DNA from: an uncultured archaeon
GTDB taxonomy: Archaea > Iainarchaeota > Iainarchaeia > Iainarchaeales > GCA-2688035
Length of the DNA: 10,447 bases
NCBI GenBank assembly: GCA_964354805.1
Contig: CAYHBD010000031.1
Coordinates: 1 to 10,447 of the forward strand
Reading direction: 5' to 3'
Position 1 is the stretch's first letter; each line of letters begins with the position of its first letter. The notes beneath the pieces were generated by a model, which worked only from the letters and a program-made list of their open reading frames with translations, was not told where the DNA came from and did no database searches. A program made the position numbers and the translations under genes. Below, one piece after another: positions 89 through 10,447 of the stretch.

Positions 89-376
89 ATGCGAAAGCTA
101 AAGCGAATTACTGGGAAAAGGGGTTCAACTGCAAGTGCTTCAACTAGGCAGAAGCTCAACAGAGCAAAGGTTTCCACTGTAAGTGCTTCAACTAGGCAGA
201 AGCTTGCCAGATGGAATCTAAGAACTGCTGCATTGCGAAGAGAAATAAATTCTATCAATGCAGCGCTTAAAACCCCAATCACCCCGGGTTGGGCAAATAA
301 GTTGAAGCGAGATTTAGGGCGCCTAACTGAAGAACTTTCTACCATTCAAACGAAACAAAAGTTATTAGGCAAGTGA
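89..376 (+). CDS. Small, very basic hypothetical protein (95 aa) with an internal repeat and a predicted C-terminal helical hairpin
   Basis: ATG at 89 with AGGTG (SD-like) at 80-84. About 24 K/R versus 4 D/E. STxSASTRQKL occurs twice. Amphipathic segments LRREINSINAALK and LKRDLGRLTEELSTIQ. T-tracts follow the stop. No recognisable family. Confidence 0.7.
   Translation: MRKLKRITGKRGSTASASTRQKLNRAKVSTVSASTRQKLARWNLRTAALRREINSINAALKTPITPGWANKLKRDLGRLTEELSTIQTKQKLLGK
124..204 (+). repeat. In-frame direct repeat, 2 copies, 48-bp period
   Basis: AAGTGCTTCAACTAGGCAGAAGCT is exact at 133-156 and 181-204. It extends to 124-156 vs 172-204 with 2 mismatches in 33 bp. Confidence 0.95.
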
Positions 377-487
377 AAAATGGCATTCTTTTTGCTTGTA
401 ATAGGCATAATTTTTTAATTGCTTAAGCCCTCATTTTTATTGTCTTTTTTGGTGGCTTTGGGTTATTATATGAAGGCAAAATACGCA

Positions 488-1732
488 ATGCATCTGGATT
501 TTTTGCGCAAGGCGGACAAGCCTGTTTTTGAGGCAATAATTGCTGAAAAGAATAGGCAGATGCAGGGCATTGAATTGATTCCAAGCGAGAACCTTGTTAG
601 CCAGGCAGTGCTTGAGGCAATGGGCAGTGTTGCAACAAACAAGTACAGCGAAGGCTATCCTGGGAAAAGATACTATGGCGGCAATGAGTTCATTGATGTA
701 ATAGAGAACCTTGCAATAGAGAGATGCAAAAAACTGTTCAAGGCAGAGCACGTGAATGTGCAACCTTTAAGCGGCAGCCCTGCAAACATGGCTGTTTATT
801 TCGCAACAATGAATGTTGGCGACACCTTTATGGGAATGAAGCTGACAGAGGGAGGGCATTTAACTCATGGCCATCCTGTGAATTTTTCTGGAAAGCTTTA
901 CAAGTGCGTTCAATACGGCGTGAGCAGGGAAACTGAAATGCTTGACTATGATGCAGTTGAAAAACAGGCAATGGAAGCAAAGCCAAAGCTTATTTTAAGC
1001 GGCTATACAGCTTACCCAAGAACAATAGATTTCAAGCGCTTCAGGGAAATCTGCGACAAAGCCGGAGCATTCTGCATGGCGGACATTGCGCACATTGCTG
1101 GCTTGTGCGCTGCAGGGGTCCATGAAAACCCTGTTCCGTTTTTTGATGCTGTTACAACAACAACCCACAAAACACTGAGGGGCCCAAGGGGCGCTGTAAT
1201 AATGTGCAGGGAAGAGTTTGCTGAAAAGATTGACAAAGCCGTTTTCCCAGGGCTGCAGGGCGGCCCGCATGAACACATAATTGCAGCAAAGGCTGTTGCA
1301 TTTGGTGAAGCGCTGAAACCACAATTCGCACAGTATGCAAAGCAGATTGTAAAAAACGCAGCTGCTTTGGCTGAAGAGCTGATGATGCTTGGATTGCGCC
1401 TGGTAAGCAATGGGACAGACAATCACCTTATGCTTGTTGATGTTTTTAAGAGCAAGGGGCTTACTGGAAAGCAGGCAGAGCACGCTTTGGAGCTGGCTGC
1501 TATTTACTGCAACAAGAACACTATTCCCTTTGATACAAGAACTCCCTGGGACCCGAGCGGAATAAGGATTGGCACGCCTGTTCTTACAACAAGGGGGATG
1601 AAAGAGAGTGAAATGAAAGAGGTTGCAAAATTCATTGTAAAAGCATTGGATAATAATGGCAATGAAACAAAGCTTGCTGCAATTAAAAAAGATGTTGCCC
1701 TGTTCTGCAAGCAGTTTCCTTTCTATAAATGA
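488..1732 (+). CDS. glyA: Serine hydroxymethyltransferase, bacterial/THF-dependent type (414 aa)
   Basis: Motifs [30 protein letters not shown], the PLP-lysine motif [27 protein letters not shown] and SGIRIGTP. Start placed at ATG 488 (MHLDFL) from typical SHMT length. ATG 470 is possible; the ORF-track start at 419 lies in T-rich spacer. Confidence 0.98.
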
Positions 1733-1801
1733 TTGTGGCAATTAACTGAAAATTGCGCAAAGTTGTTGTAATTAAATTAATTTCCTTTATAGTTATTTTT
1801 T

Positions 1802-2686
1802 ATGCCGGCAAAGATAATCAATGGAAACGCAGTTGCGCAGCACGTTATTGCAAAAGTGCGGAGGGAGTTAGCGCTTTTGGAGGCAATTAACGTAAAGCCA
1901 ACCCTTGCCGTTGTCCTGGTTGGCGAGAATGCAGCAAGCAAATTGTATGTTGAGAAAAAGCAGCAGATGTGCGAGCAGCTTGGCCTTGGCTTTGAATTGC
2001 GTGCATTAGATGAAAAAATCAGCGAGCAGGAATTAAAGGGAATAATAAATGAATTAAATTACAGCCTGAATGTCCACGGCATACTTGTCCAGCTGCCACT
2101 GCCTGAAAATTTAAGGCAGGAAGCAATCCTGGGCTGCATTTCTCCATTAAAGGATGTTGACGGCTTCAGCGCCCTGAACCTTGGATTGCTTTTCTATGGC
2201 GAAAGCAGCCTTGCTGCATGCACTGCAAAAGCCATAATCAAGCTGATTGAAAGCAGCGGCACAAAAATTGAGGGCGCAAATGTCTGCGTTATAAACCACA
2301 GCATTGTTGTGGGAAAGCCCCTGGCATTAATGCTGCTGCACAGGAATGCAACAGTAACAGTCTGCCACAAATTCACCAAAGACCTTGCATTGCACACAAA
2401 GCAGGCAGACATTCTGATAACTGCTGTCGGCAAGCCTGGTTTGATTAAGGCAGACATGGTCAAGCAAGGCGCTGTTGTGATTGATGCAGGCATTGCCAAG
2501 GCAGGGGATAAAACAGTTGGCGATGTTGATTTTGAGGGCGTGAGCAAGGTTGCCTCTTTCATAACACCAGTTCCAGGCGGAGTAGGCCCAATGACAGTCG
2601 CATATTTAATGGAAAACACCCTTAACGCAGCCCTGCTGCAGCAAAGCCAAAAGCAGGCTGGCCAAAAAAGCAGTGCTGCATTATAA
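1802..2686 (+). CDS. folD: Bifunctional methylene-THF dehydrogenase / methenyl-THF cyclohydrolase
   Basis: LAVVLVG, YxxxK (YVEKK), HGILVQLP, KDVDG, ATVTVCH, VGDVDF and TPVPGGVGPMTVA. Confidence 0.98.
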   Translation: MPAKIINGNAVAQHVIAKVRRELALLEAINVKPTLAVVLVGENAASKLYVEKKQQMCEQLGLGFELRALDEKISEQELKGIINELNYSLNVHGILVQLPLPENLRQEAILGCISPLKDVDGFSALNLGLLFYGESSLAACTAKAIIKLIESSGTKIEGANVCVINHSIVVGKPLALMLLHRNATVTVCHKFTKDLALHTKQADILITAVGKPGLIKADMVKQGAVVIDAGIAKAGDKTVGDVDFEGVSKVASFITPVPGGVGPMTVAYLMENTLNAALLQQSQKQAGQKSSAAL

Positions 2687-2709
2687 CTGCCCGCAATATT
2701 GCTGAAACC

Positions 2710-2748
2710 TTAAAGAAGTTCAGCGGCTTTTTAACTGCATCTTGTCAG
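2710..2748 (-). pseudogene. Degenerate copy (stub) of the last 13 codons of lipA
   Basis: Reads L-T-R-C-S-*-K-A-A-E-L-L-* versus lip[13 protein letters not shown] (2801-2763). 27/39 nt identical without gaps, offset 53 bp. Confidence 0.85.
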
Positions 2749-2762
2749 CAGGCATATCAATC

Positions 2763-3602
2763 TCAGAAAAGCTCAGCCGCCTTGTAGCTGCTTCTAACCA
2801 GAGGTCCTGCAATAACGCGCCTGAATCCTTTTTGCAATGCAATTTCTTTCAATTCACTGAATTTCATTGGTTCAATAAATTCAGCAACAGGCAGGCTCTC
2901 TTTGTTCGGCTGCAGGTATTGCCCAATTGTTAAGAAATCAACCCATGCTGCAATCAAGTCATCCATTGCCCTTAGCACCTCTTCCCTTGTTTCGCCCAGG
3001 CCAAGCATTATGCTGCTCTTTGTGAAAATTTTTTTATTCAATTTCTTTGCATTCAGCAAAACATTCAATGATTGTTCATAGCCTGCCCTTGCATCCCTTG
3101 CAACATGCTGCAGTCTTTCAACAACCTCAATATTGTGCCCGATTACAGCTGGTTTCGCTTCAACAACCTTTTGCAGGCAATCACAATTGCCCTGAAAATC
3201 CGGAATCAGCGCTTCAACCTTTGCGCCGGCTGCATTCGCTGCTTTGATGCATTCGGCAAAATGCAAAGCGCCAAAATCAGGCAAATCATCTCGGTCAACG
3301 GAAGTTAAAACAGCATAGCGCAGCCCGAATTTTTTGATTGCATCAGCAATTTTTTTGGGCTCCAGGGCATCGAGTGCTGTGCCTTTTTTTGCGCTCTGCA
3401 CAGCGCAGAAAGCGCAGTGCCTTGTGCAAGTGCTGCCCAAAATCAGGAAAGTTGCTGTTTTGCTTTTCCAGCATTCAGCAATGTTAGGGCATCTTGCTTC
3501 CTCGCAGACAGTATGCAATCCGGAAGAGTGCAATGTGTTTCTAATTTGATTGAATTCCTCTCCGCCGGCAATCTTAACTTTCAGCCATTCAGGTTTTGGC
3601 AT
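2763..3602 (-). CDS. lipA: Lipoyl synthase (radical SAM)
   Basis: [19 protein letters not shown] (CX4CX5C), CTRHCAFC (CX3CX2C), [28 protein letters not shown] and C-terminal RSSY. ATG 3602 has GGAGTGA upstream and overlaps the gcvPB end; GTG 3611 is an alternative. Confidence 0.98.
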
Positions 3603-4935
3603 TCCGCTCACTCCATCTCAAAACAGGCTCCCTTGCGGCTTTCACAGCGTCCAACCGTTTCACTGGCATGCTGTGCGGAGCGCTTTTAACCAGTTCCGGA
3701 TTTTTTTCCGCTTCTTCCTTTATTTTAATCATTGCATCAGCAAAGCTGTCAAGCGTTTCCCTGCTTTCTGTTTCAGTTGGCTCAATCATCATTGCGCCTT
3801 TTACAATCAGAGGAAAATAAATTGTTGGGGGATGAAATCCATAGTCAAGCAATCTTTTTGCAATGTCATTTGTTGTTACGCCATTTGGCATATCCTTGTC
3901 AGAGATAACGAATTCATGCATGCATTTCCTGTTGAATTGCAAGTGATAATGCTTTCGCAGCCTTTCCATCAGATAGTTTGCATTCAAAACAGCGTTTTCC
4001 GAAACCTCTTTCAATCCGCCTGCGCCGATTGCCCTCAAGTAAGTGTATGCTTTCACCATCACGCCAAAGTTTCCGTAAAAACTACGCACCTTTCCAATGC
4101 TGTCTTTGCCGCTGTAATCCAGCTCATACATATTGCCTTTTTTTTCAATCAAAGGCCTTGGAAGGAATGGAACCAGTTTTTCAATCACTGCAATTGGCCC
4201 TGCTCCAGGGCCTCCAGCGCCGTGCGGTGTGGAAAATGTTTTATGCAAATTCAAATGCATTAAATCAATTCCCAAATCAGCAGGCCTGCAAACGCCGAGC
4301 AATGCATTCAGGTTTGCCCCATCACCGTAAACAAAAGCGCCTTTTTCATGAACTGCCCTGCATACTTCAACAATGTTCCGGTCAAACAGGCCGAGCGTGT
4401 TTGGGTTTGTTATCATTATTGCCGCAACGCTGTTATCAAGTTTCTGCTTCAGGTCGTTCAAATCAATATTGCCTTGCGCATCGCTTTTCACTTCCACTGC
4501 TTCAAACCCGCACATTGAAACGCTTGCAGGGTTTGTCCCATGCGCCGAATCTGGCACCAAAACCTTTGCCCTCTGCTCGCCTTTCTTCCTGAAGTATGCC
4601 TGGATCATTATCATTCCAGTCAGTTCGCCTTGCGCGCCTGCGGCAGGCTGCAGGCTGCATTGCTTGAAGCTTGTTATTTCGCAAAGCATTTTTTGCAATT
4701 CAAACATTAATTGCAATGCTCCCTGAACTGTAGCAAGCGGCTGCAGCGGGTGCAGCCGTGAAAATCCATCCAGCTTTGCAATTTCCTCGCAGATTTTCGG
4801 GTTGTATTTCATTGTGCAGCTTCCGAGCGGATAAAAGCCATTGTCAACACCGAAATTCATCCTGCTCAAGGCAGTGAAGTGCCTTATTACTTCTGGCTCG
4901 CTCAAATTCATGCCCTTTTCAAAGATTAATTTCAT
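3589..4935 (-). CDS. gcvPB: Glycine dehydrogenase (decarboxylating) subunit 2, P-protein beta
   Basis: [48 protein letters not shown], the PLP-lysine motif [13 protein letters not shown], and IEPTETES. Confidence 0.98.
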
Positions 4936-4984
4936 AAAAATCCCTTGCCAAATTCAAATTTCCTTTTTCAAAAACCATTTTCAT
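4919..4984 (-). pseudogene. Stub of the gcvPB 5' end, now a 21-aa out-of-frame mini-ORF ([21 protein letters not shown])
   Basis: ATG overlaps the gcvPA stop (ATGA), with GGAGG at 4996-4992, 7 nt upstream. [12 protein letters not shown] aligns to the gcvPB start [11 protein letters not shown], 18/24 nt over the first 8 codons. Offset 49 bp. Confidence 0.85.
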
Positions 4985-6297
4985 TGCAGGGCCTCCAGTT
5001 CAGCCGCTAGTTTATCTATTTCCCATTTGCTGTTCATTTCAGTTGCAGCCAAAAGAACGCAGTCGCGCAATTCAGGAAAATTTTCCTCAAGCAGAAGACC
5101 GAAAACAATGTTTTTCTGCAGCAGTTTTTCCCGAATTTTTTTAATATCCTTTTTCTTTGCAACAAATTCGTTGAAGAAATTCTTTCCAAAAGGAAATTCA
5201 AAGCCAATCGTCTGCAGTTTTTCAGCAAGGTACAGTGCATTTGCATGGTTTTCCCCTGCAACCTCTTTCAATCCTTTTTTCCCAATGGTTGCAAGGAAAA
5301 CGGTTGCAGCAAGCGCGCCCAATGACTGGTTGGTGCAGATATTGCTGCCCGCCTTTTCCCGCCTGATATGCTGCTCCCTTGCCTGCAAAGTAAGAATGAA
5401 GCCCTCTTTTCCATCGGCATCCGCTGTTTTCCCGACCAATCTCCCTGGAATTTGCCGCAGAAACTGCTGCCTGCATGCAATAACGCCTGCAGCAGGGCCT
5501 CCGAAATTCATTGCATTGCCAAAGCTCTGCACATCTGCTGCAACAATATCAGCGCCGCTTTCAGCTGGCTCGCCGATAAAAGGCAATGACATTGCTTCTG
5601 CAATTGCAACAACCAAAAGAGCCTCTTTTGCATGCACTGCTTTTCCAATTTCTGAAAGCTTTTCAATGCACCCAAAAAAATTGGGCTGCTGCACAATAAA
5701 GCAGGCTGTTTCTTCATCAATCGCATCAACCAAATCTTTTGTTTCAATTTCCCGTAATTGCAGGCCGCCTGCGTTTGCATAGGTTTCAACAACAGCCTTG
5801 TATTCAGGGTTAAGGCTTTTTGCAACCAGAACTTCTTTTCTGCCTGTGAAATTTTTTGCCATAACCATTGCTTCTGCTGTTGCTGATGCGCCATCATACA
5901 TGCTTGCGTTTGCAACATCCATTCCAGTGAGCAGGCAGATGTATGTCTGCCATTCAAAGATTGCCTGCAGAATGCCCTGGCTTATTTCAGGTTGGTATGG
6001 CGTATAAGCAGTGTAGAACTCGCTTCTGCTGGTTATTGCAGCTACTGTTGCAGGAATGAAATGGTTATAGCAGCCTGCCCCAATAAAAAGCTGCAACTGC
6101 TTTGCCGTCTTGTTCAATGCAGCAATTGATTCAATTTCCTTTCTAAGTTCTCGTTCATTCAAGGCAGGCTGCAGATTCATTTCCCGTTCAATCAGGACTT
6201 TTTTCGGCACATCGGCGAATAATTCTTTTACATTATTGACTCCGATTTCTTTCAGCATTTCGCGCTTTTCTTTCTCACTGTTAGGTATAAATCGCAC
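4981..6297 (-). CDS. gcvPA: Glycine dehydrogenase (decarboxylating) subunit 1, P-protein alpha
   Basis: FIGAGCYNH, EFYTAYTPYQPEISQG, VANASMYDGASA, FGGP, PGRLVG and REQHIRREKAGSNICTNQ. GTG start with a GGGGG SD-like run. Confidence 0.98.
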   Translation of the reverse strand: MRFIPNSEKEKREMLKEIGVNNVKELFADVPKKVLIEREMNLQPALNERELRKEIESIAALNKTAKQLQLFIGAGCYNHFIPATVAAITSRSEFYTAYTPYQPEISQGILQAIFEWQTYICLLTGMDVANASMYDGASATAEAMVMAKNFTGRKEVLVAKSLNPEYKAVVETYANAGGLQLREIETKDLVDAIDEETACFIVQQPNFFGCIEKLSEIGKAVHAKEALLVVAIAEAMSLPFIGEPAESGADIVAADVQSFGNAMNFGGPAAGVIACRQQFLRQIPGRLVGKTADADGKEGFILTLQAREQHIRREKAGSNICTNQSLGALAATVFLATIGKKGLKEVAGENHANALYLAEKLQTIGFEFPFGKNFFNEFVAKKKDIKKIREKLLQKNIVFGLLLEENFPELRDCVLLAATEMNSKWEIDKLAAELEALQ

Positions 6298-6351
6298 CCA
6301 AAGCCCCCTACAGAAATAAAAAATAATTAAGGTTCTGAAATTCTTTTCCCT

Positions 6352-6744
6352 TTATTTTTTCTTCTTCTCTTCCAGCACAAAAGCGTCATATTGCCTGCTG
6401 TCCAGCAGGTCTTGCAATTCTTTTTCATTGCCGATTTTTATTTTGGCAATCCAGGTGCCATAAGGGTCCTTATTCAAAAGCTCAGGGTTTTTCTCTGCGG
6501 CAGGATTCACTTCTGCAACAGTGCCGCTCACTGGAGCGAAAACATCGCTCACGCTTTTCACGCTTTCAACGCTGCACATTGGCTTGTTCTGCTCTACTTT
6601 TGCGCCAAGCTTGGGCAATTCAACAAAAACTATGTCAGTAAGGCTGTGCTGGGCATAATCAGTTATTCCAACTGTTGCAATATTGCCGGCTAACTTGCAC
6701 CATTCGTGCTCCTTTGTGTATTTCCTATCAGCAGGGCTTGCCAT
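6352..6744 (-). CDS. gcvH: Glycine cleavage system H protein (130 aa)
   Basis: YTKEHEW, VGITDYAQ, lipoyl-lysine motif VESVKSVSD, and LNKDPY. ATG 6744 follows AGGAGATGA; ATG 6753 (ATGA overlap with gcvT) is an alternative. Confidence 0.98.
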   Translation of the reverse strand: MASPADRKYTKEHEWCKLAGNIATVGITDYAQHSLTDIVFVELPKLGAKVEQNKPMCSVESVKSVSDVFAPVSGTVAEVNPAAEKNPELLNKDPYGTWIAKIKIGNEKELQDLLDSRQYDAFVLEEKKKK

Positions 6745-6749
6745 AAAAA

Positions 6750-7832
6750 TCATCTCCTATAAAAGGGCAGCTCAACAACCTTTGCCTTAACCCTTTTTCC
6801 CCTAATATTAATTTCAATTTCTTGCCCAACAGCACTAAATTCTTTTGCTATATATCCTAACCCAATACTCTTTTTTAATGTTGGCGAAAAGCCGGCGCTT
6901 GTTGCAATCCCCACTTTCCCTGAATTTGCAAAAATTTCGCAGCCATGCCTTGCAATGCCTTTTTCAATCAACTCAAATCCAATCAATTTTTCTTTGACAC
7001 CAAGCCTCTTTTGCTTTACCAGCGCCCTTTTTCCAACAAACCCCTTGTTCCAGGAAACGATTTTCTCATAAGGGCAGAGCAGAATGCTGTGTTCCGCATC
7101 AATATCCTGCCCATGCAGAAGCATGCCAGCCTCCAATCGCAGAGTGTCCCTTGCAGCAAGCCCGCAGGGCAGCAAGCCAAATTCCTTTCCAGCCTGCATC
7201 AGCGCATTCCACACTTTCTCCGCATTGCCAGCATCAAAATACAATTCAAAGCCATCCTCGCCAGTGTAGCCGCTCCTGCTCACAAGGCAATCAACGGTGT
7301 TCAATTTAATTTCTTTAAAATTATAGTATTTTATTTTGTTTAAATTTTCTTCAGCCAATTTCTGCAAAACTTTTTCCGCTTTTGGACCCTGCAAATCAAG
7401 CTTTGCCATGGTTTGCCTCAAACCCTCTGCTTTCGCATCAATCCCTTTTGCATTTTTCTGCACCCAAAGCAAATCGCTTTCATATGGGACTGCGTTCACA
7501 ACAAGCCAGAATTTTTCCTTGTTGAATTTGTACACGGTCAAATCATCTAAAATGCAGCCTGCTTCATTGCACATTGCAGCGAGTTTCATTTGCCCTTTTT
7601 TCATTCCGGAAATATCCCTTACAAGCAGCGATTGCAGCAGCTTTTCCGCATCTTTCCCCAGCACCTCTATTTCCCCCATGTGCGAAACATCAAACAGGTC
7701 GCATTGCTGCCTTACGGCATTGTGCTCTGCAATTGGCGAGCCATAGTGCAATGGCAGCATCCAGCCGTGAAAATCGGTCAGTGCTGCGCCAAGCGCTTGG
7801 TGCAATGCAAAAAAAGGCGTTTTGTTTGGCAT
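6750..7832 (-). CDS. gcvT: Glycine cleavage system aminomethyltransferase, T protein (360 aa)
   Basis: KTPF, FHGWMLP, LFDVSHMGE, DD pair, LQGP, SRSGYTGEDGFE and ARDTLRLEAG. Start placed at ATG 7832 (MPNKTP). Confidence 0.98.
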   Translation of the reverse strand: MPNKTPFFALHQALGAALTDFHGWMLPLHYGSPIAEHNAVRQQCDLFDVSHMGEIEVLGKDAEKLLQSLLVRDISGMKKGQMKLAAMCNEAGCILDDLTVYKFNKEKFWLVVNAVPYESDLLWVQKNAKGIDAKAEGLRQTMAKLDLQGPKAEKVLQKLAEENLNKIKYYNFKEIKLNTVDCLVSRSGYTGEDGFELYFDAGNAEKVWNALMQAGKEFGLLPCGLAARDTLRLEAGMLLHGQDIDAEHSILLCPYEKIVSWNKGFVGKRALVKQKRLGVKEKLIGFELIEKGIARHGCEIFANSGKVGIATSAGFSPTLKKSIGLGYIAKEFSAVGQEIEINIRGKRVKAKVVELPFYRR

Positions 7833-7860
7833 AATGAACAAATAGAAGAATAGCAAAAAT

Positions 7861-7904
7861 CCTTAAAGCCAATTGTTGGGCAAAGAATTAGTAAGCCTTA
7901 AAAA
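7861..7904. promoter_or_regulatory. Divergent promoter region with putative archaeal TATA boxes for gcvT (-) and ORF 7927 (+)
   Basis: On +, CTTAAAAA at 7897-7904 begins 30 nt before ATG 7927, preceded by AGTAAGC. On -, TTTAAGG at 7867-7861 begins 35 nt before ATG 7832. Confidence 0.5.
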
Positions 7905-7926
7905 TTTTGGGAAACTATATTGATAC

Positions 7927-8217
7927 ATGGCTCAGCCTTTTCAAAAGAGAAAGTCAAGTGGCTGGGTTTCGCGAAAGCGCCAAGCCCACGGTGAAATGTT
8001 TCTAAGCCAGAGAAAAAAACTTTTAGACAGAAGAACTAGTTTACTGCACGAAATAGGCGCCTTGCAAGATAGGGTGGCTGCTTTGGAAAGAGCAGGCAAA
8101 CTGGATGATTTGCATCCAAAAACAAGCCGCACCAACAGGGAAGTATTTGCCAGTTCGCTCGAAAAAAAGCATAAGAGTTTGAACCGAACAGAAGCCCACT
8201 TAAAGCAGTTTGATTAA
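7927..8217 (+). CDS. Small basic hypothetical protein (96 aa), predicted coiled-coil hairpin
   Basis: Fills the gap between gcvT and the next gene, with an ATG start and a TATA-like box at -30. K/R-rich N-terminus. Heptad-like helices LLHEIGALQDRVAALE and LEKKHKSLNRTEAHLK. Confidence 0.75.
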   Translation: MAQPFQKRKSSGWVSRKRQAHGEMFLSQRKKLLDRRTSLLHEIGALQDRVAALERAGKLDDLHPKTSRTNREVFASSLEKKHKSLNRTEAHLKQFD

Positions 8218-8233
8218 AATCAATGCTAGCCGG

Positions 8234-8284
8234 TTACTTCAGCAGCCCTTTTTCGCGCAGAGCTTGCTCTATGCGCTGCCTTTC
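8234..8284 (-). pseudogene. Stub duplicating the last 17 codons of the glutaredoxin-like gene
   Basis: ERQRIEQALREKGLLK* versus ERQKIEQALKEKGLLK* at 10287-10237. 43/51 nt identical, and the stop-proximal 21 nt are exact. Confidence 0.95.
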
Positions 8285-8288
8285 TGCC

Positions 8289-10127
8289 TTATGGCGGGCA
8301 TCCTGCCCTGTTCCATAGCTTCATTTTCTGCATTAGTGCCAGCATTGTCCTTTCGCCTCTTTTCCACTGGGGAATATATTCGTTTATTAATGTTGGCGTG
8401 TCAACGCATTCTTGTGTTTGAGTGCAACCGCTTTTGTCAAGCGTGCATTGTGCTGTGCATCCAAGCGTTCCGCCTGCGAATCCAAGTGCAGTGCAGGTTG
8501 TTGGCACGTTTGTTGAATCGCATTCCTCGTTTCCTTGTATAATGCCATCGCCGCATTCTGGTACATGGCAAGCTCCGCAGTCCTCTGGGCAATTGGAGCA
8601 GTTTTCCACGATTTGCTCATCGCATATTCTGTCGCCGCAAAAAAGCTCATGTTTTACATTCATCATTGCATCTAAATAGGCTTCTCTTTGCGCATTGTAC
8701 TCTTCTTTTGAATTGCACTCTCTTCGCTCATACTGGCCTCTGGGGTAAGGGGTGGTTCGAGTAGGATCAGAGCCGCAAAGTATTCTTGTAAAACTAGGCG
8801 GGTTTGTTAAAAATTCATAGTCGTCTGTTAATCCCTTTGAAGGCCCCATTTCATATCCATTGGTGTTTTTTGCCAGAGCAATAAGAACCCCATCCCACCC
8901 GGCTGGCTCCCAATACCAAATATGGGTCCTGCCTACATAGTAAGCATAGATTTCATCGTTATAGCTTCCGCCGTGTAGTGCAGGCATTTTAAGGCCGGTG
9001 AGGTTGTAATAATTTTTTCCAGACACTTTGCGATTTACGAAATTCACTTCCTGAAAATAGCGTGAACCCTCTATCCAGCCTTCTGTTCCAAATAAAACTG
9101 CTGGGTTCTCGGAGTCAGAAAAACCAGCAAGAATGTTGTCATAATATTTGTTTCTATACTGTTCATCTCCTTCCGGCGGGTTTTGTTTTGGGGATGGATA
9201 AAAACCAATCAAAAAATCACGGTTAACCTTCTTAACTTCAGTTTTCAAGTTTGTTGCAAGCCCTTTAATATCGTCTGCAAGAAAACTATAATAATCATCT
9301 AAGCAGCCATTTTCACTTAGCCAGACCACTCTTCTTGCTCTTTCTTCAAAACTGGGGCCGGTTGGTTTAGGCGCTTGCCCTTGTGAACATCTTCCAGCGC
9401 TAAGGTATTTGTTAAAAATGAAGTCTTCAAAGCCGAATTCTTCGGTTAGGTAATGGGGTTGGGTAAAACTATCGGAGTATTTAAAATTCCCGATAAGATA
9501 AAGTTCAAAATCAAAGAGGACTCCATCTACTCTATGCCTCTCTGTCTGGTCTAATTTAGCCAAAGCAACAGCAACATCTGTCAAATGTCGCCAGTATTTT
9601 TCATCCCAGGGGCTTACCATGCAGCCCTCTATGCCATTGCTAAAAACTGCTCTATGTTCAGCTACCGCTGATACATAATCACCATAATAAGCATCATCAC
9701 CATCATAATCAGCATCACAGGGTAATTGAAATTTGCTGCTGCCCTGGTACCATCTCTCAAAGTAGTTTGTAAACCAAACTGATACAAAATTCAGCATATT
9801 TTTTTCGTATGCTTTTTCGGAATAATCTACAATTGCCTGAGGCAAGTGATCGGGATACTTTACTCCGTCTGAGAAATCGAGCTGGGCCAGCCTGTGATTA
9901 TCAGTAGAAATAACAAGAGTATTTATTCCGTGTTCTTTGAGTATGTCTATTGCCTCTAAATCGCTAGTGGATGAATTTAAATTCTGGCTGGTAAAGTCTG
10001 CTGCTGCTATTTTCCCCCTCGAAACCATCTCTTGAAAGCTGCCAAGAGCCATGGCGGGGGCTGCTGCAAATAAGAACATTACCGCAAGAGTAATTGCAAT
10101 AAGTACGGCTCTTGGTTTCAATTTCAA
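8289..10127 (-). CDS. Secreted or surface putative glycoside hydrolase-like (TIM-barrel, GHL10-like) protein with Cys-rich repeats and a dockerin-like C-terminal module
   Basis: TTG start. Signal peptide aa 1-27 ending A-M-A. Pattern LKEHGINTLVI ... SPWDEKYW ... VDGVLFDFELY ... LKTEVKKVNRDFLIGFYP resembles GHL10-like barrels. CGDRICD and CGDGIIQGNEECD repeats at about 8639-8420. Terminal CVDTPTLINEYIPQWKRGERTMLALMQKMKLW. The CDS is secure; the family call is by eye. Confidence 0.7.
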   Translation of the reverse strand: MKLKPRAVLIAITLAVMFLFAAAPAMALGSFQEMVSRGKIAAADFTSQNLNSSTSDLEAIDILKEHGINTLVISTDNHRLAQLDFSDGVKYPDHLPQAIVDYSEKAYEKNMLNFVSVWFTNYFERWYQGSSKFQLPCDADYDGDDAYYGDYVSAVAEHRAVFSNGIEGCMVSPWDEKYWRHLTDVAVALAKLDQTERHRVDGVLFDFELYLIGNFKYSDSFTQPHYLTEEFGFEDFIFNKYLSAGRCSQGQAPKPTGPSFEERARRVVWLSENGCLDDYYSFLADDIKGLATNLKTEVKKVNRDFLIGFYPSPKQNPPEGDEQYRNKYYDNILAGFSDSENPAVLFGTEGWIEGSRYFQEVNFVNRKVSGKNYYNLTGLKMPALHGGSYNDEIYAYYVGRTHIWYWEPAGWDGVLIALAKNTNGYEMGPSKGLTDDYEFLTNPPSFTRILCGSDPTRTTPYPRGQYERRECNSKEEYNAQREAYLDAMMNVKHELFCGDRICDEQIVENCSNCPEDCGACHVPECGDGIIQGNEECDSTNVPTTCTALGFAGGTLGCTAQCTLDKSGCTQTQECVDTPTLINEYIPQWKRGERTMLALMQKMKLWNRAGCPP

Positions 10128-10149
10128 TCAATAGATTAAAGCGCTTTGT

Positions 10150-10157
10150 TTAATAAA
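10150..10157 (-). promoter_or_regulatory. Putative archaeal TATA box of the 612-aa gene
   Basis: TTTATTAA begins exactly 30 nt upstream of TTG 10127, with an A-rich stretch upstream and no SD. Consistent with a leaderless transcript. Confidence 0.55.
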
Positions 10158-10220
10158 AATTTATTGTTTGAATTTTAGGGCGGTTCTTGCTTAATCCTTT
10201 AGATTCCTATTTTGCTTTTC

Positions 10221-10236
10221 AAAAATCAGAAAAAAA
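10221..10236 (-). terminator. T-tract (archaeal-type) terminator after the glutaredoxin-like gene
   Basis: TTTTTTTCTGATTTTT immediately follows the TAA. Confidence 0.5.
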
Positions 10237-10447
10237 TTACTTCAGCAGCCCTTTTTCTTTCAGCGCCTGCTCTATTTTCTGCCTTTCAAAGCCCTCGATG
10301 ATTATTCCGTCAATGTCAGTTAAGGGCAGCACTACCTCTTTGCTTCCCTCCGGCCGAACGCTTCTCCTCTTTTCAACCATTTCTTTTGCCCTTCCCTTGT
10401 CCTCTATTACATCATACTCCTCAAATGCAACATTATAGCGCCGCAGC
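10237..10447 (-). CDS. Glutaredoxin/NrdH-like thioredoxin-fold protein, 3' part only (5' end outside window; not in the ORF track)
   Basis: Open frame 10446-10237: LRRYNVAFEEYDVIEDKGRAKEMVEKRRSVRPEGSKEVVLPLTDIDGIIIEGFERQKIEQALKEKGLLK*. It matches the NrdH/YruB-like pattern V-x-F-E-E-x-D-V ... EM ... P-x-x-x-IDG-x-x-I-x-GF. The CxxC site is not visible. Confidence 0.8.
   Translation of the reverse strand, partial: LRRYNVAFEEYDVIEDKGRAKEMVEKRRSVRPEGSKEVVLPLTDIDGIIIEGFERQKIEQALKEKGLLK

Follow-up and report, generated by a model that had tools for sequence, protein, structure and literature searches.

Homology-facilitated illegitimate recombination, as de Vries and Wackernagel reportedly set out in 2002, attaches foreign DNA through homology at one of its ends, and the resident copy may then remain as a stub. 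Short tandem duplications formed by microhomology or slippage are head-to-tail copies of single-copy DNA (PMC8639346; PMC13167724; bioRxiv 10.64898/2026.02.28.708716). A third pattern is insertion with long target duplication, for which Furuta et al. 2010 (PMC2853133) cite Nobusato et al. 2000; here an integrase-free block enters between direct repeats of more than 30 bp that reach into a host gene's 3' end and occur only once at empty sites. PMC2853133 also gives a case of 46-bp repeats overlapping a gene end, and its survey recovered no archaeal case. Here we describe the spacers of a 10,447-nucleotide (nt) archaeal contig (CAYHBD010000031.1 of GenBank assembly GCA_964354805.1; the whole stretch is referred to as the window), which contain diverged copies, or stubs, of the ends of the neighbouring genes. 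The window is the entire 10.4-kb contig C31 of a 1.38-Mb archaeal metagenome bin of 49 contigs (G000), and was compared with its relatives L188, L189, L190, L191, G012, G022 and G006 and with the contigs of P0004 and P0126.

The short stubs resemble microhomology and slippage duplications in that they are removed from coding sequence by selection, are reversible and polymorphic among close relatives, and reach three copies. They differ from that class in their frequency, in their unit size, in that many young copies are non-tandem, and in that the copies split overlapping genes, leaving spacers that are then conserved. Homology-facilitated illegitimate recombination fits the stub of a glutaredoxin-like gene (X), but not most of the short ones, whose decay is that of local copies without a coding role; coding constraint on both copies was found only for the X stub and others of its cargo-bearing class. 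Among described patterns, insertion with long target duplication (PMC2853133) comes closest to the insert beside X. The inserted block has 51-nt repeats that are single-copy at empty sites, although its cargo is a gene for a secreted protein rather than a restriction-modification system, and its repeats are only 84% identical, with coding-like differences, where those of the published case are near-identical. Thus, the X repeats were not made identical in place.

We found other known systems to differ from what is seen here. The insert at X is a single open reading frame (ORF) without a Pfam family, unlike an integrase-driven island in a gene 3' end. Mobile endonuclease ORFs of fungal mitochondria, which bring a replacement gene end and likewise turn the old one into a stub, differ in that no nuclease gene is present in the insert here. 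Mismatches are not confined to adenines, and housekeeping genes are hit, unlike in a diversity-generating retroelement (reverse transcriptase was not searched for). The duplicated length is not fixed, unlike in ectopic spacer integration of the CRISPR (clustered regularly interspaced short palindromic repeats) type, with perfect repeats of 14-31 nt and repeats overall of 14-53 nt.

Gene-end copies across the genome and at two junctions

Genes were called with a simple ORF caller (n = 1274 in G000), and the final 60 nt of every gene were compared with the 200 nt downstream, with permuted pairs as the control. At a score of at least 12, we identified 3' echoes for 113 genes against 8.3 in permuted pairs, and at a score of at least 14 for 72 genes against 0.33. 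An earlier reading of the window from its letters alone (the sequence-only reading) had proposed that the spacers contain diverged copies of adjacent gene ends, and the genome-wide alignment that it suggested clearly exceeds the control rate. An annotation-blind diagonal scan recovered 486 direct repeats at short range, where a codon-shuffled genome gave 24; the 486 included 64 gene 3' ends and 27 gene 5' ends copied in spacers, 88 repeats within spacers and 201 within genes.

The excess is specific to this lineage. Gene-end copies were found at 88 of 1233 genes in G000 (~7%), against 14 of 1282 in five genomes related at the family or order level (odds ratio 7, P 1e-15), which is about sevenfold their rate, and the echo scan of one 50-kb piece of E. 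coli returned zero echoes. The period of the gene-end echoes peaks at 48-54 nt, within a range of 42-72 nt and with a minor second peak near double that size, and the coding part of a stub is at most about 60 nt long, with one outlier at 114 nt. Arrays with two or three copies are common in G000, and true tandem examples with a shared period are present at several loci. Duplications within genes were largely in frame, 49 of the 62 with a period of 40-72 nt being multiples of three, against 24 of 75 at gene ends, in keeping with the depletion from coding sequence of out-of-frame units in the microhomology and slippage class.

The sequence-only reading had further held that both copies of each repeat diverged while coding, with differences mostly synonymous or conservative, and that the stubs are therefore displaced alleles. 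For the short-range class, including the lipA and gcvPB stubs of the window, these statements had to be abandoned; they survive only for the stub of X. In a tally of 88 short-range stubs and 688 codons, the check by codon position that the same reading had named as able to refute it, mismatches fell near-uniformly at codon positions 1, 2 and 3 (87, 87 and 127, or 29, 29 and 42%; omega ~0.35), as predicted for a neutral copy set against a constrained one, and far from a comparison of two coding sequences. Gapped alignments of the stubs contained 50 indels, 45 of them frame-shifting. Similarity between gene end and stub also extends beyond the stop codon in ~40% of loci, the first 6 nt after it showing 47% against 28% identity, and substitutions affect every base class, the commonest being G to A. 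A division of the short-range stubs into two classes was rejected, as their heterogeneity was not significant (chi-square P 0.14).

At the folD/lipA junction, relatives retain both the ancestral and an intermediate state. In G012, the two genes are convergent, with a single shared copy: a 25-nt antisense overlap that falls exactly on the segment of copy C (Table 1) and encodes QKSSAAL-stop on one strand and SSYKAAELF-stop on the other. Two copies are present in L189, and three in G000, L188 and L190, with copy B lying 48 nt from copy A and 53 nt from copy C, so that here, as at several other loci, the whole unit is repeated head-to-tail. Copy B, which L189 lacks and which hardly varies between the window, L188 and L190, reads LTRCS*KAAELL*, with an in-frame stop and three non-synonymous codons. 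This lipA stub had been picked out by the sequence-only reading, and was confirmed here with a P per gene end of 0.007 ungapped and 0.005 gapped, under a null in which gene ends were paired with the flanks of other genes; copy A, the third copy at the folD end, is an extra echo beyond that earlier listing.

Copies A and C differ at nine bases, and both still read QKSSAAL-stop. In the antisense register of folD and lipA, the third codon positions of both genes are the identical nucleotides. The differences between copies A and C are thus only synonymous because any change that lipA tolerates in copy C leaves the former folD reading unaltered as well, and a foreign allele is therefore unnecessary to explain them. 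This calls for caution more generally, as a gene end and its echo may seem to have diverged synonymously through the constraint of a gene on the opposite strand rather than through a foreign allele.

Similarly, at the gcvPA/gcvPB junction, most of nine other genera show an overlap (ATGA or TTGA) between the stop of gcvPA and the start of gcvPB, and the junction is shorter than in the window by 49 nt in eight of these relatives and by ~61 nt in one. The contig of P0004, a near relative (lipA identity 90%), has a 4-nt overlap of the two genes and no stub, as judged from gene coordinates. In the window, it is the ATG of a gcvPB stub that overlaps the gcvPA stop (ATGA), and this stub (4984-4949 against 4935-4900, offset 49) bears a 3-nt indel and is out of frame with the gene. 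It too was confirmed against the null (gapped P 0.0005), and L191 has the same stub in a further decayed form. The observation that stubs keep the orientation of their parent gene was correct for the three clear stubs, of lipA, gcvPB and X.

Spacers are conserved after they form. Among G000, L188 and L190, the 76-nt folD/lipA spacer aligns without gaps at 93-95% identity, against 73-80% at third positions of lipA, and overall a spacer identity of 93-94% compares with 73-81% at third positions. The spacer between X and the cargo gene is identical to that of L191 at 102 of 109 nt (94%). Thus, the stubs are non-coding yet not free to drift, and we infer from this pattern that the spacers are under purifying selection and carry expression signals. 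An Rfam search of the spacers gave no hits, and we could not find stable RNA folds in them (fold z-scores of -1.1 to +1.3). Matches of the spacers to the rest of the genome were mostly at chance level, ruling out import from other genomic sites, although a few spacers contain dispersed hairpin repeats. Inverted templating from nearby DNA was likewise ruled out, there being no excess of such matches.

A cargo gene beside the glutaredoxin-like gene

The stub of X and the working X end lie 2003 nt apart and form the longest direct repeat of the window. The intervening block, consisting of a 109-nt conserved spacer, a gene for a protein of 612 amino acids (aa) and 7 nt, is bracketed by the 51-nt end of X and its copy. 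The two copies differ by two AAA-to-CGC (Lys-to-Arg) codons, in which all three bases are changed, and by two silent changes, while the last 21 nt are identical. As random decay would not give this pattern of differences, the stub appears to come from another functional allele. An empty site, with X directly upstream of gcvT, was identified in G022, G012, G006 and the P0126 contig. The 2-kb insert has a single ORF, with no integrase or transposase gene. Both the stub itself and the proposal that cargo can enter without an integrase were therefore upheld, given the coding-like divergence, the integrase-free cargo gene and the empty site in relatives. An apparent X fragment at the start of contig C55 of G012 was rejected as a stub, being an overlap of strain-variant contig ends. 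Integration of a tRNA/att type was also ruled out: a tRNA search of the window found none, and the insert has no integrase.

At the same site, L191 has a 736-aa paralog of the 612-aa protein, with 28% identity overall and 67% over the final 54 residues, and any trace of X downstream of it is badly decayed. In G000, the 612-aa protein has a large family of paralogs, whose Cys-rich C-terminal module of ~50-100 residues gave 17 further matches, and several members lie in tandem clusters on contigs C9 and C16.

Elsewhere in G000, we identified nine candidate loci at which a gene end is repeated 0.2-2 kb away, five of which hold one or two called genes between the repeats. When these are pooled with X, 58% of mismatches fall at the third codon position, with zero indels; the cargo-type repeats beyond X, put at seven to ten, are thus more biased to that position than the short-range stubs. 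In L191, a 144-aa gene of no known family (14131-14565) separates lipA from folD at the border that in G000 contains dead copy B, and the same border thus accepts both duplications and cargo. The sequence-only reading had also raised a recombination system that swaps gene ends, and had suggested a search for a shared junction motif; neither a motif nor a dedicated recombination system was found, although no search for a candidate enzyme was made.

Proposed mechanism and rival explanations

We consider it probable that two processes act at gene borders, short local duplication and the entry of cassettes by host recombination. Short duplications, mostly of 42-72 nt with a mode of 48-54 nt, would arise across the whole genome and survive only where harmless, spanning a start or stop codon, in spacers, or in frame in tolerant genes. 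A duplication over a flush or overlapping junction would provide both genes with separate copies of the segment they had shared; the leftover copies would lose their coding role and gather substitutions and frameshifts, and further rounds would produce the two- or three-copy arrays that become an intergenic spacer, subsequently held by purifying selection. Two rounds, of 48 and 53 nt, may have separated the 25-nt antisense overlap of folD and lipA, and a single 49-nt round the ATGA overlap of gcvPA and gcvPB. Cassettes would enter the same borders by host recombination, flanked by two diverged, coding-like copies of a gene end, as with the 612-aa gene between X and what would be a foreign-allele stub of X. 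For the short class we infer replication slippage or microhomology-mediated duplication as the molecular route, and for the cargo class homology-assisted insertion.

Several observations weigh against slippage or microhomology as the whole account of the short class. In the youngest repeats (at least 95% identity), the rest of the unit matches the flank in only 3 of 22, and in most an unrelated spacer of 16-40 nt stands between the two repeats (a repeat-spacer-repeat layout). Even within genes, few units measure 18-36 nt, and the preference for ~50 nt is therefore unexplained by a generic slippage spectrum. The stops of stubs have switched to another stop codon in 15 cases, against ~4-8 expected, and retention of the stop under stop-blind detection was marginal (4 destroyed against 8.7 expected, P 0.07). 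A few short-range stubs, such as that at C9:147846-149171 with seven synonymous and no non-synonymous codons, are purely synonymous and by their codons look like displaced alleles, and the old copies are too diverged for unit borders or microhomology arms to be placed. The layout of the young repeats, the unit size, the stop switching and the synonymous stubs thus leave room for a mechanism more specific than generic slippage. One such mechanism, which we think unlikely, is a lineage-specific remodelling of junctions, by a dedicated enzyme or by altered replication or repair, that would add units of ~50 nt made of a 20-30-nt copy and new sequence. If true, it would make regulatory spacers from gene ends, and would prime sites for cassettes exchanged between strains through gene-end homology alone.

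Insertion driven by an enzyme, with staggered cuts ~20-30 nt apart and filler or a small element between them, would likewise produce repeat-spacer-repeat units of ~50 nt, much as in transposon target duplication or when CRISPR spacers integrate ectopically. This seems rather improbable to us. The arrangement of the young events, the narrow total size shared by genes, spacers and gene ends (mode 48-54 nt), the lineage-specific excess and two perfect 27-28-nt repeats that flank a dispersed hairpin element all speak for it, but repeat length is variable (14-53 nt), true tandems of the same period exist, and the spacers are mostly unique with no common motif, some having diverged from a copy of the repeat or of its flanks (16-19% lie above the 95th percentile of the control, with 5% expected); a candidate enzyme was neither identified nor searched for. 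It is also doubtful, to a similar degree, that all stubs are alleles displaced by diverged homologous DNA, joined through homology at one end and illegitimately at the other. The X stub has diverged in a coding-like manner, the few purely synonymous stubs point the same way, and similarity between stub and gene ends at -3 to +5 nt of the stop codon in 46% of cases against 26% expected. Recombination between lineages moreover does occur, as shown by the mosaic divergence between G000 and L191 along the region, with third-position identity of 0.86-0.88 for lipA and folD and of 0.69-0.77 for gcvT, gcvH, gcvPA and gcvPB. However, displacement would not predict the near-uniform codon positions and frame-shifting indels of the short stubs, nor their length ceiling of ~60 nt; perfect repeats around unique spacers are impossible from a diverged donor, the spacers have no match elsewhere in the genome, and the series of one, two and three copies at constant unit size indicates local copying. 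Finally, that the stubs are strain-chimeric assembly artefacts of a mixed population is extremely improbable. The genome is indeed a metagenome bin in 49 contigs, and one relative has overlapping contig ends that represent strain variants of the X locus, but the copies are 69-90% identical and share at most ~9 nt at their junctions, making a k-mer misjoin unlikely; the same three-copy spacer is moreover present in two independent assemblies from other projects, and the gcvPB stub recurs in L191. Scant sharing at junctions and the same arrays in independent assemblies led us to rule this explanation out.

Under the preferred combination of local duplication and cassette entry, this lineage displays the origin of intergenic DNA in a compact genome, in which duplications of a gene's own end part overlapping or flush genes and selection then keeps the spacer. 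The series of overlap, two-copy and three-copy states across relatives could serve as a natural model for the resolution of overlaps and the birth of regulatory spacers, and for why the same borders admit cargo genes without a mobility enzyme. The sevenfold excess and the preferred unit size hint that replication or repair has changed. A lost flap endonuclease was ruled out as a cause, as the gene is present; other repair genes were not surveyed.

We additionally noted individual loci in G000. The flap endonuclease gene (XPG/Fen1-type, C10:43119-44168) is followed, at a distance of 53 nt, by an echo of its own 3' end. Perfect 27-28-nt gene-end repeats at C16:23248-23360 and C9:82132-82780 surround a 59-nt spacer starting with GCCTTT, and the sole difference adjoining the repeat is the stop codon, TGA against TAA; at C16:23248-23360, this spacer is a hairpin element present elsewhere in the genome. 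At C16:22976-23095, a perfect 21-nt repeat with a tRNA T-arm-like motif, GGGATTCGAA, surrounds a 78-nt insert with a dispersed hairpin repeat.

Gene content and weaker echoes of the window

The genes, gene-end copies and spacers of the window are given in Table 1. The ortholog of X in L191 matches PF00462. A search of JGI metagenome contigs with gcvT for near relatives returned only proteins of ~40% identity, and an exact look-up of gcvH gave no match.

Table 1. Genes, gene-end copies and spacers in the window (positions counted from its first letter)
Feature	Positions	Strand	Remarks
glyA	470-1732	+	
glyA-folD spacer	1733-1801	+	weak; probably derived from the glyA 3' end by an old duplication, now decayed; gapped P 0.024
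folD	1802-2686	+	
Copy A, working folD 3' end (QKSSAAL, stop)	2663-2686	+	peptide also read from the + strand of copy C, at a distance of 101 nt; L188 and L190 conserve copy A
Copy B, dead middle copy (lipA 3' stub)	2710-2748	-	27/39 nt to copy C
Copy C, working lipA 3' end	2763-2801	-	+ strand 2764-2787 reads QKSSAAL-stop, the ancestral folD end
lipA	2763-3611	-	
gcvPB	3589-4935	-	
gcvPB working 5' end, second copy of the duplicated unit	4887-4935	-	
gcvPB 5'-end stub, 49 nt	4936-4984	-	retains the ancestral ATGA overlap with the gcvPA stop
gcvPA	4981-6297	-	
gcvH	6352-6753	-	
gcvT	6750-7832	-	
gcvT 5'-region echo	7977-7998	-	18/22 nt; ~187 nt upstream of the parent segment; null P 0.007
Stub of X 3' end, downstream of cargo gene	8234-8284	-	43/51 nt to 10237-10287; reads ERQRIEQALREKGLLK-stop; no indel
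Cargo gene (612-aa ORF), secreted-type protein with Cys-rich C-terminus, between X and gcvT	8289-10127	-	no Pfam hit
Spacer between X and cargo gene	10128-10236	-	conserved; marginal echo of the X end near 10205-10223
Working X 3' end, partner of the 8234-8284 stub	10237-10287	-	
Glutaredoxin-like gene X, partial (3' part)	10237-10446	-	

The sequence-only reading had listed three weaker echoes, of which that after glyA (gapped P 0.024, with added support from a further diverged copy in L188) and the X-proximal one around 10205-10223 (gapped P 0.033) held up marginally, while the gcvH echo was at chance level against the null (P 0.69). Absent from its list were the gcvT 5' echo and an in-frame 48-nt tandem duplication, with copies at 118-163 and 166-211, within an ORF of 95 codons at 89-376 (+). 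This ORF, though listed by gene callers, is probably not protein-coding, because its identity to L191 is equal (~80%) at each of the three codon positions, in a gap-free alignment.

An ORF of 96 codons at 7927-8217 (+), within the region 7857-8233, has a low coding score and no family, and the gcvT 5' echo falls on the strand opposite to it. A counterpart of this region is missing from L191, whose cargo gene and gcvT are only 72 nt apart, and the region may be junk assembled from old duplications.

Unit-sized differences between relatives were also identified at other borders. At glyA/folD, L188 has one more diverged tandem copy, of 64 nt, and the 135-nt spacer of L191 suggests that the extra copy is present there too. 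Between gcvT and gcvH, L191 has a 27-nt duplication of the ribosome-binding region, in which GAGGTGATTGG occurs twice, 27 nt apart (10075-10125), at the place where the two genes overlap in G000.

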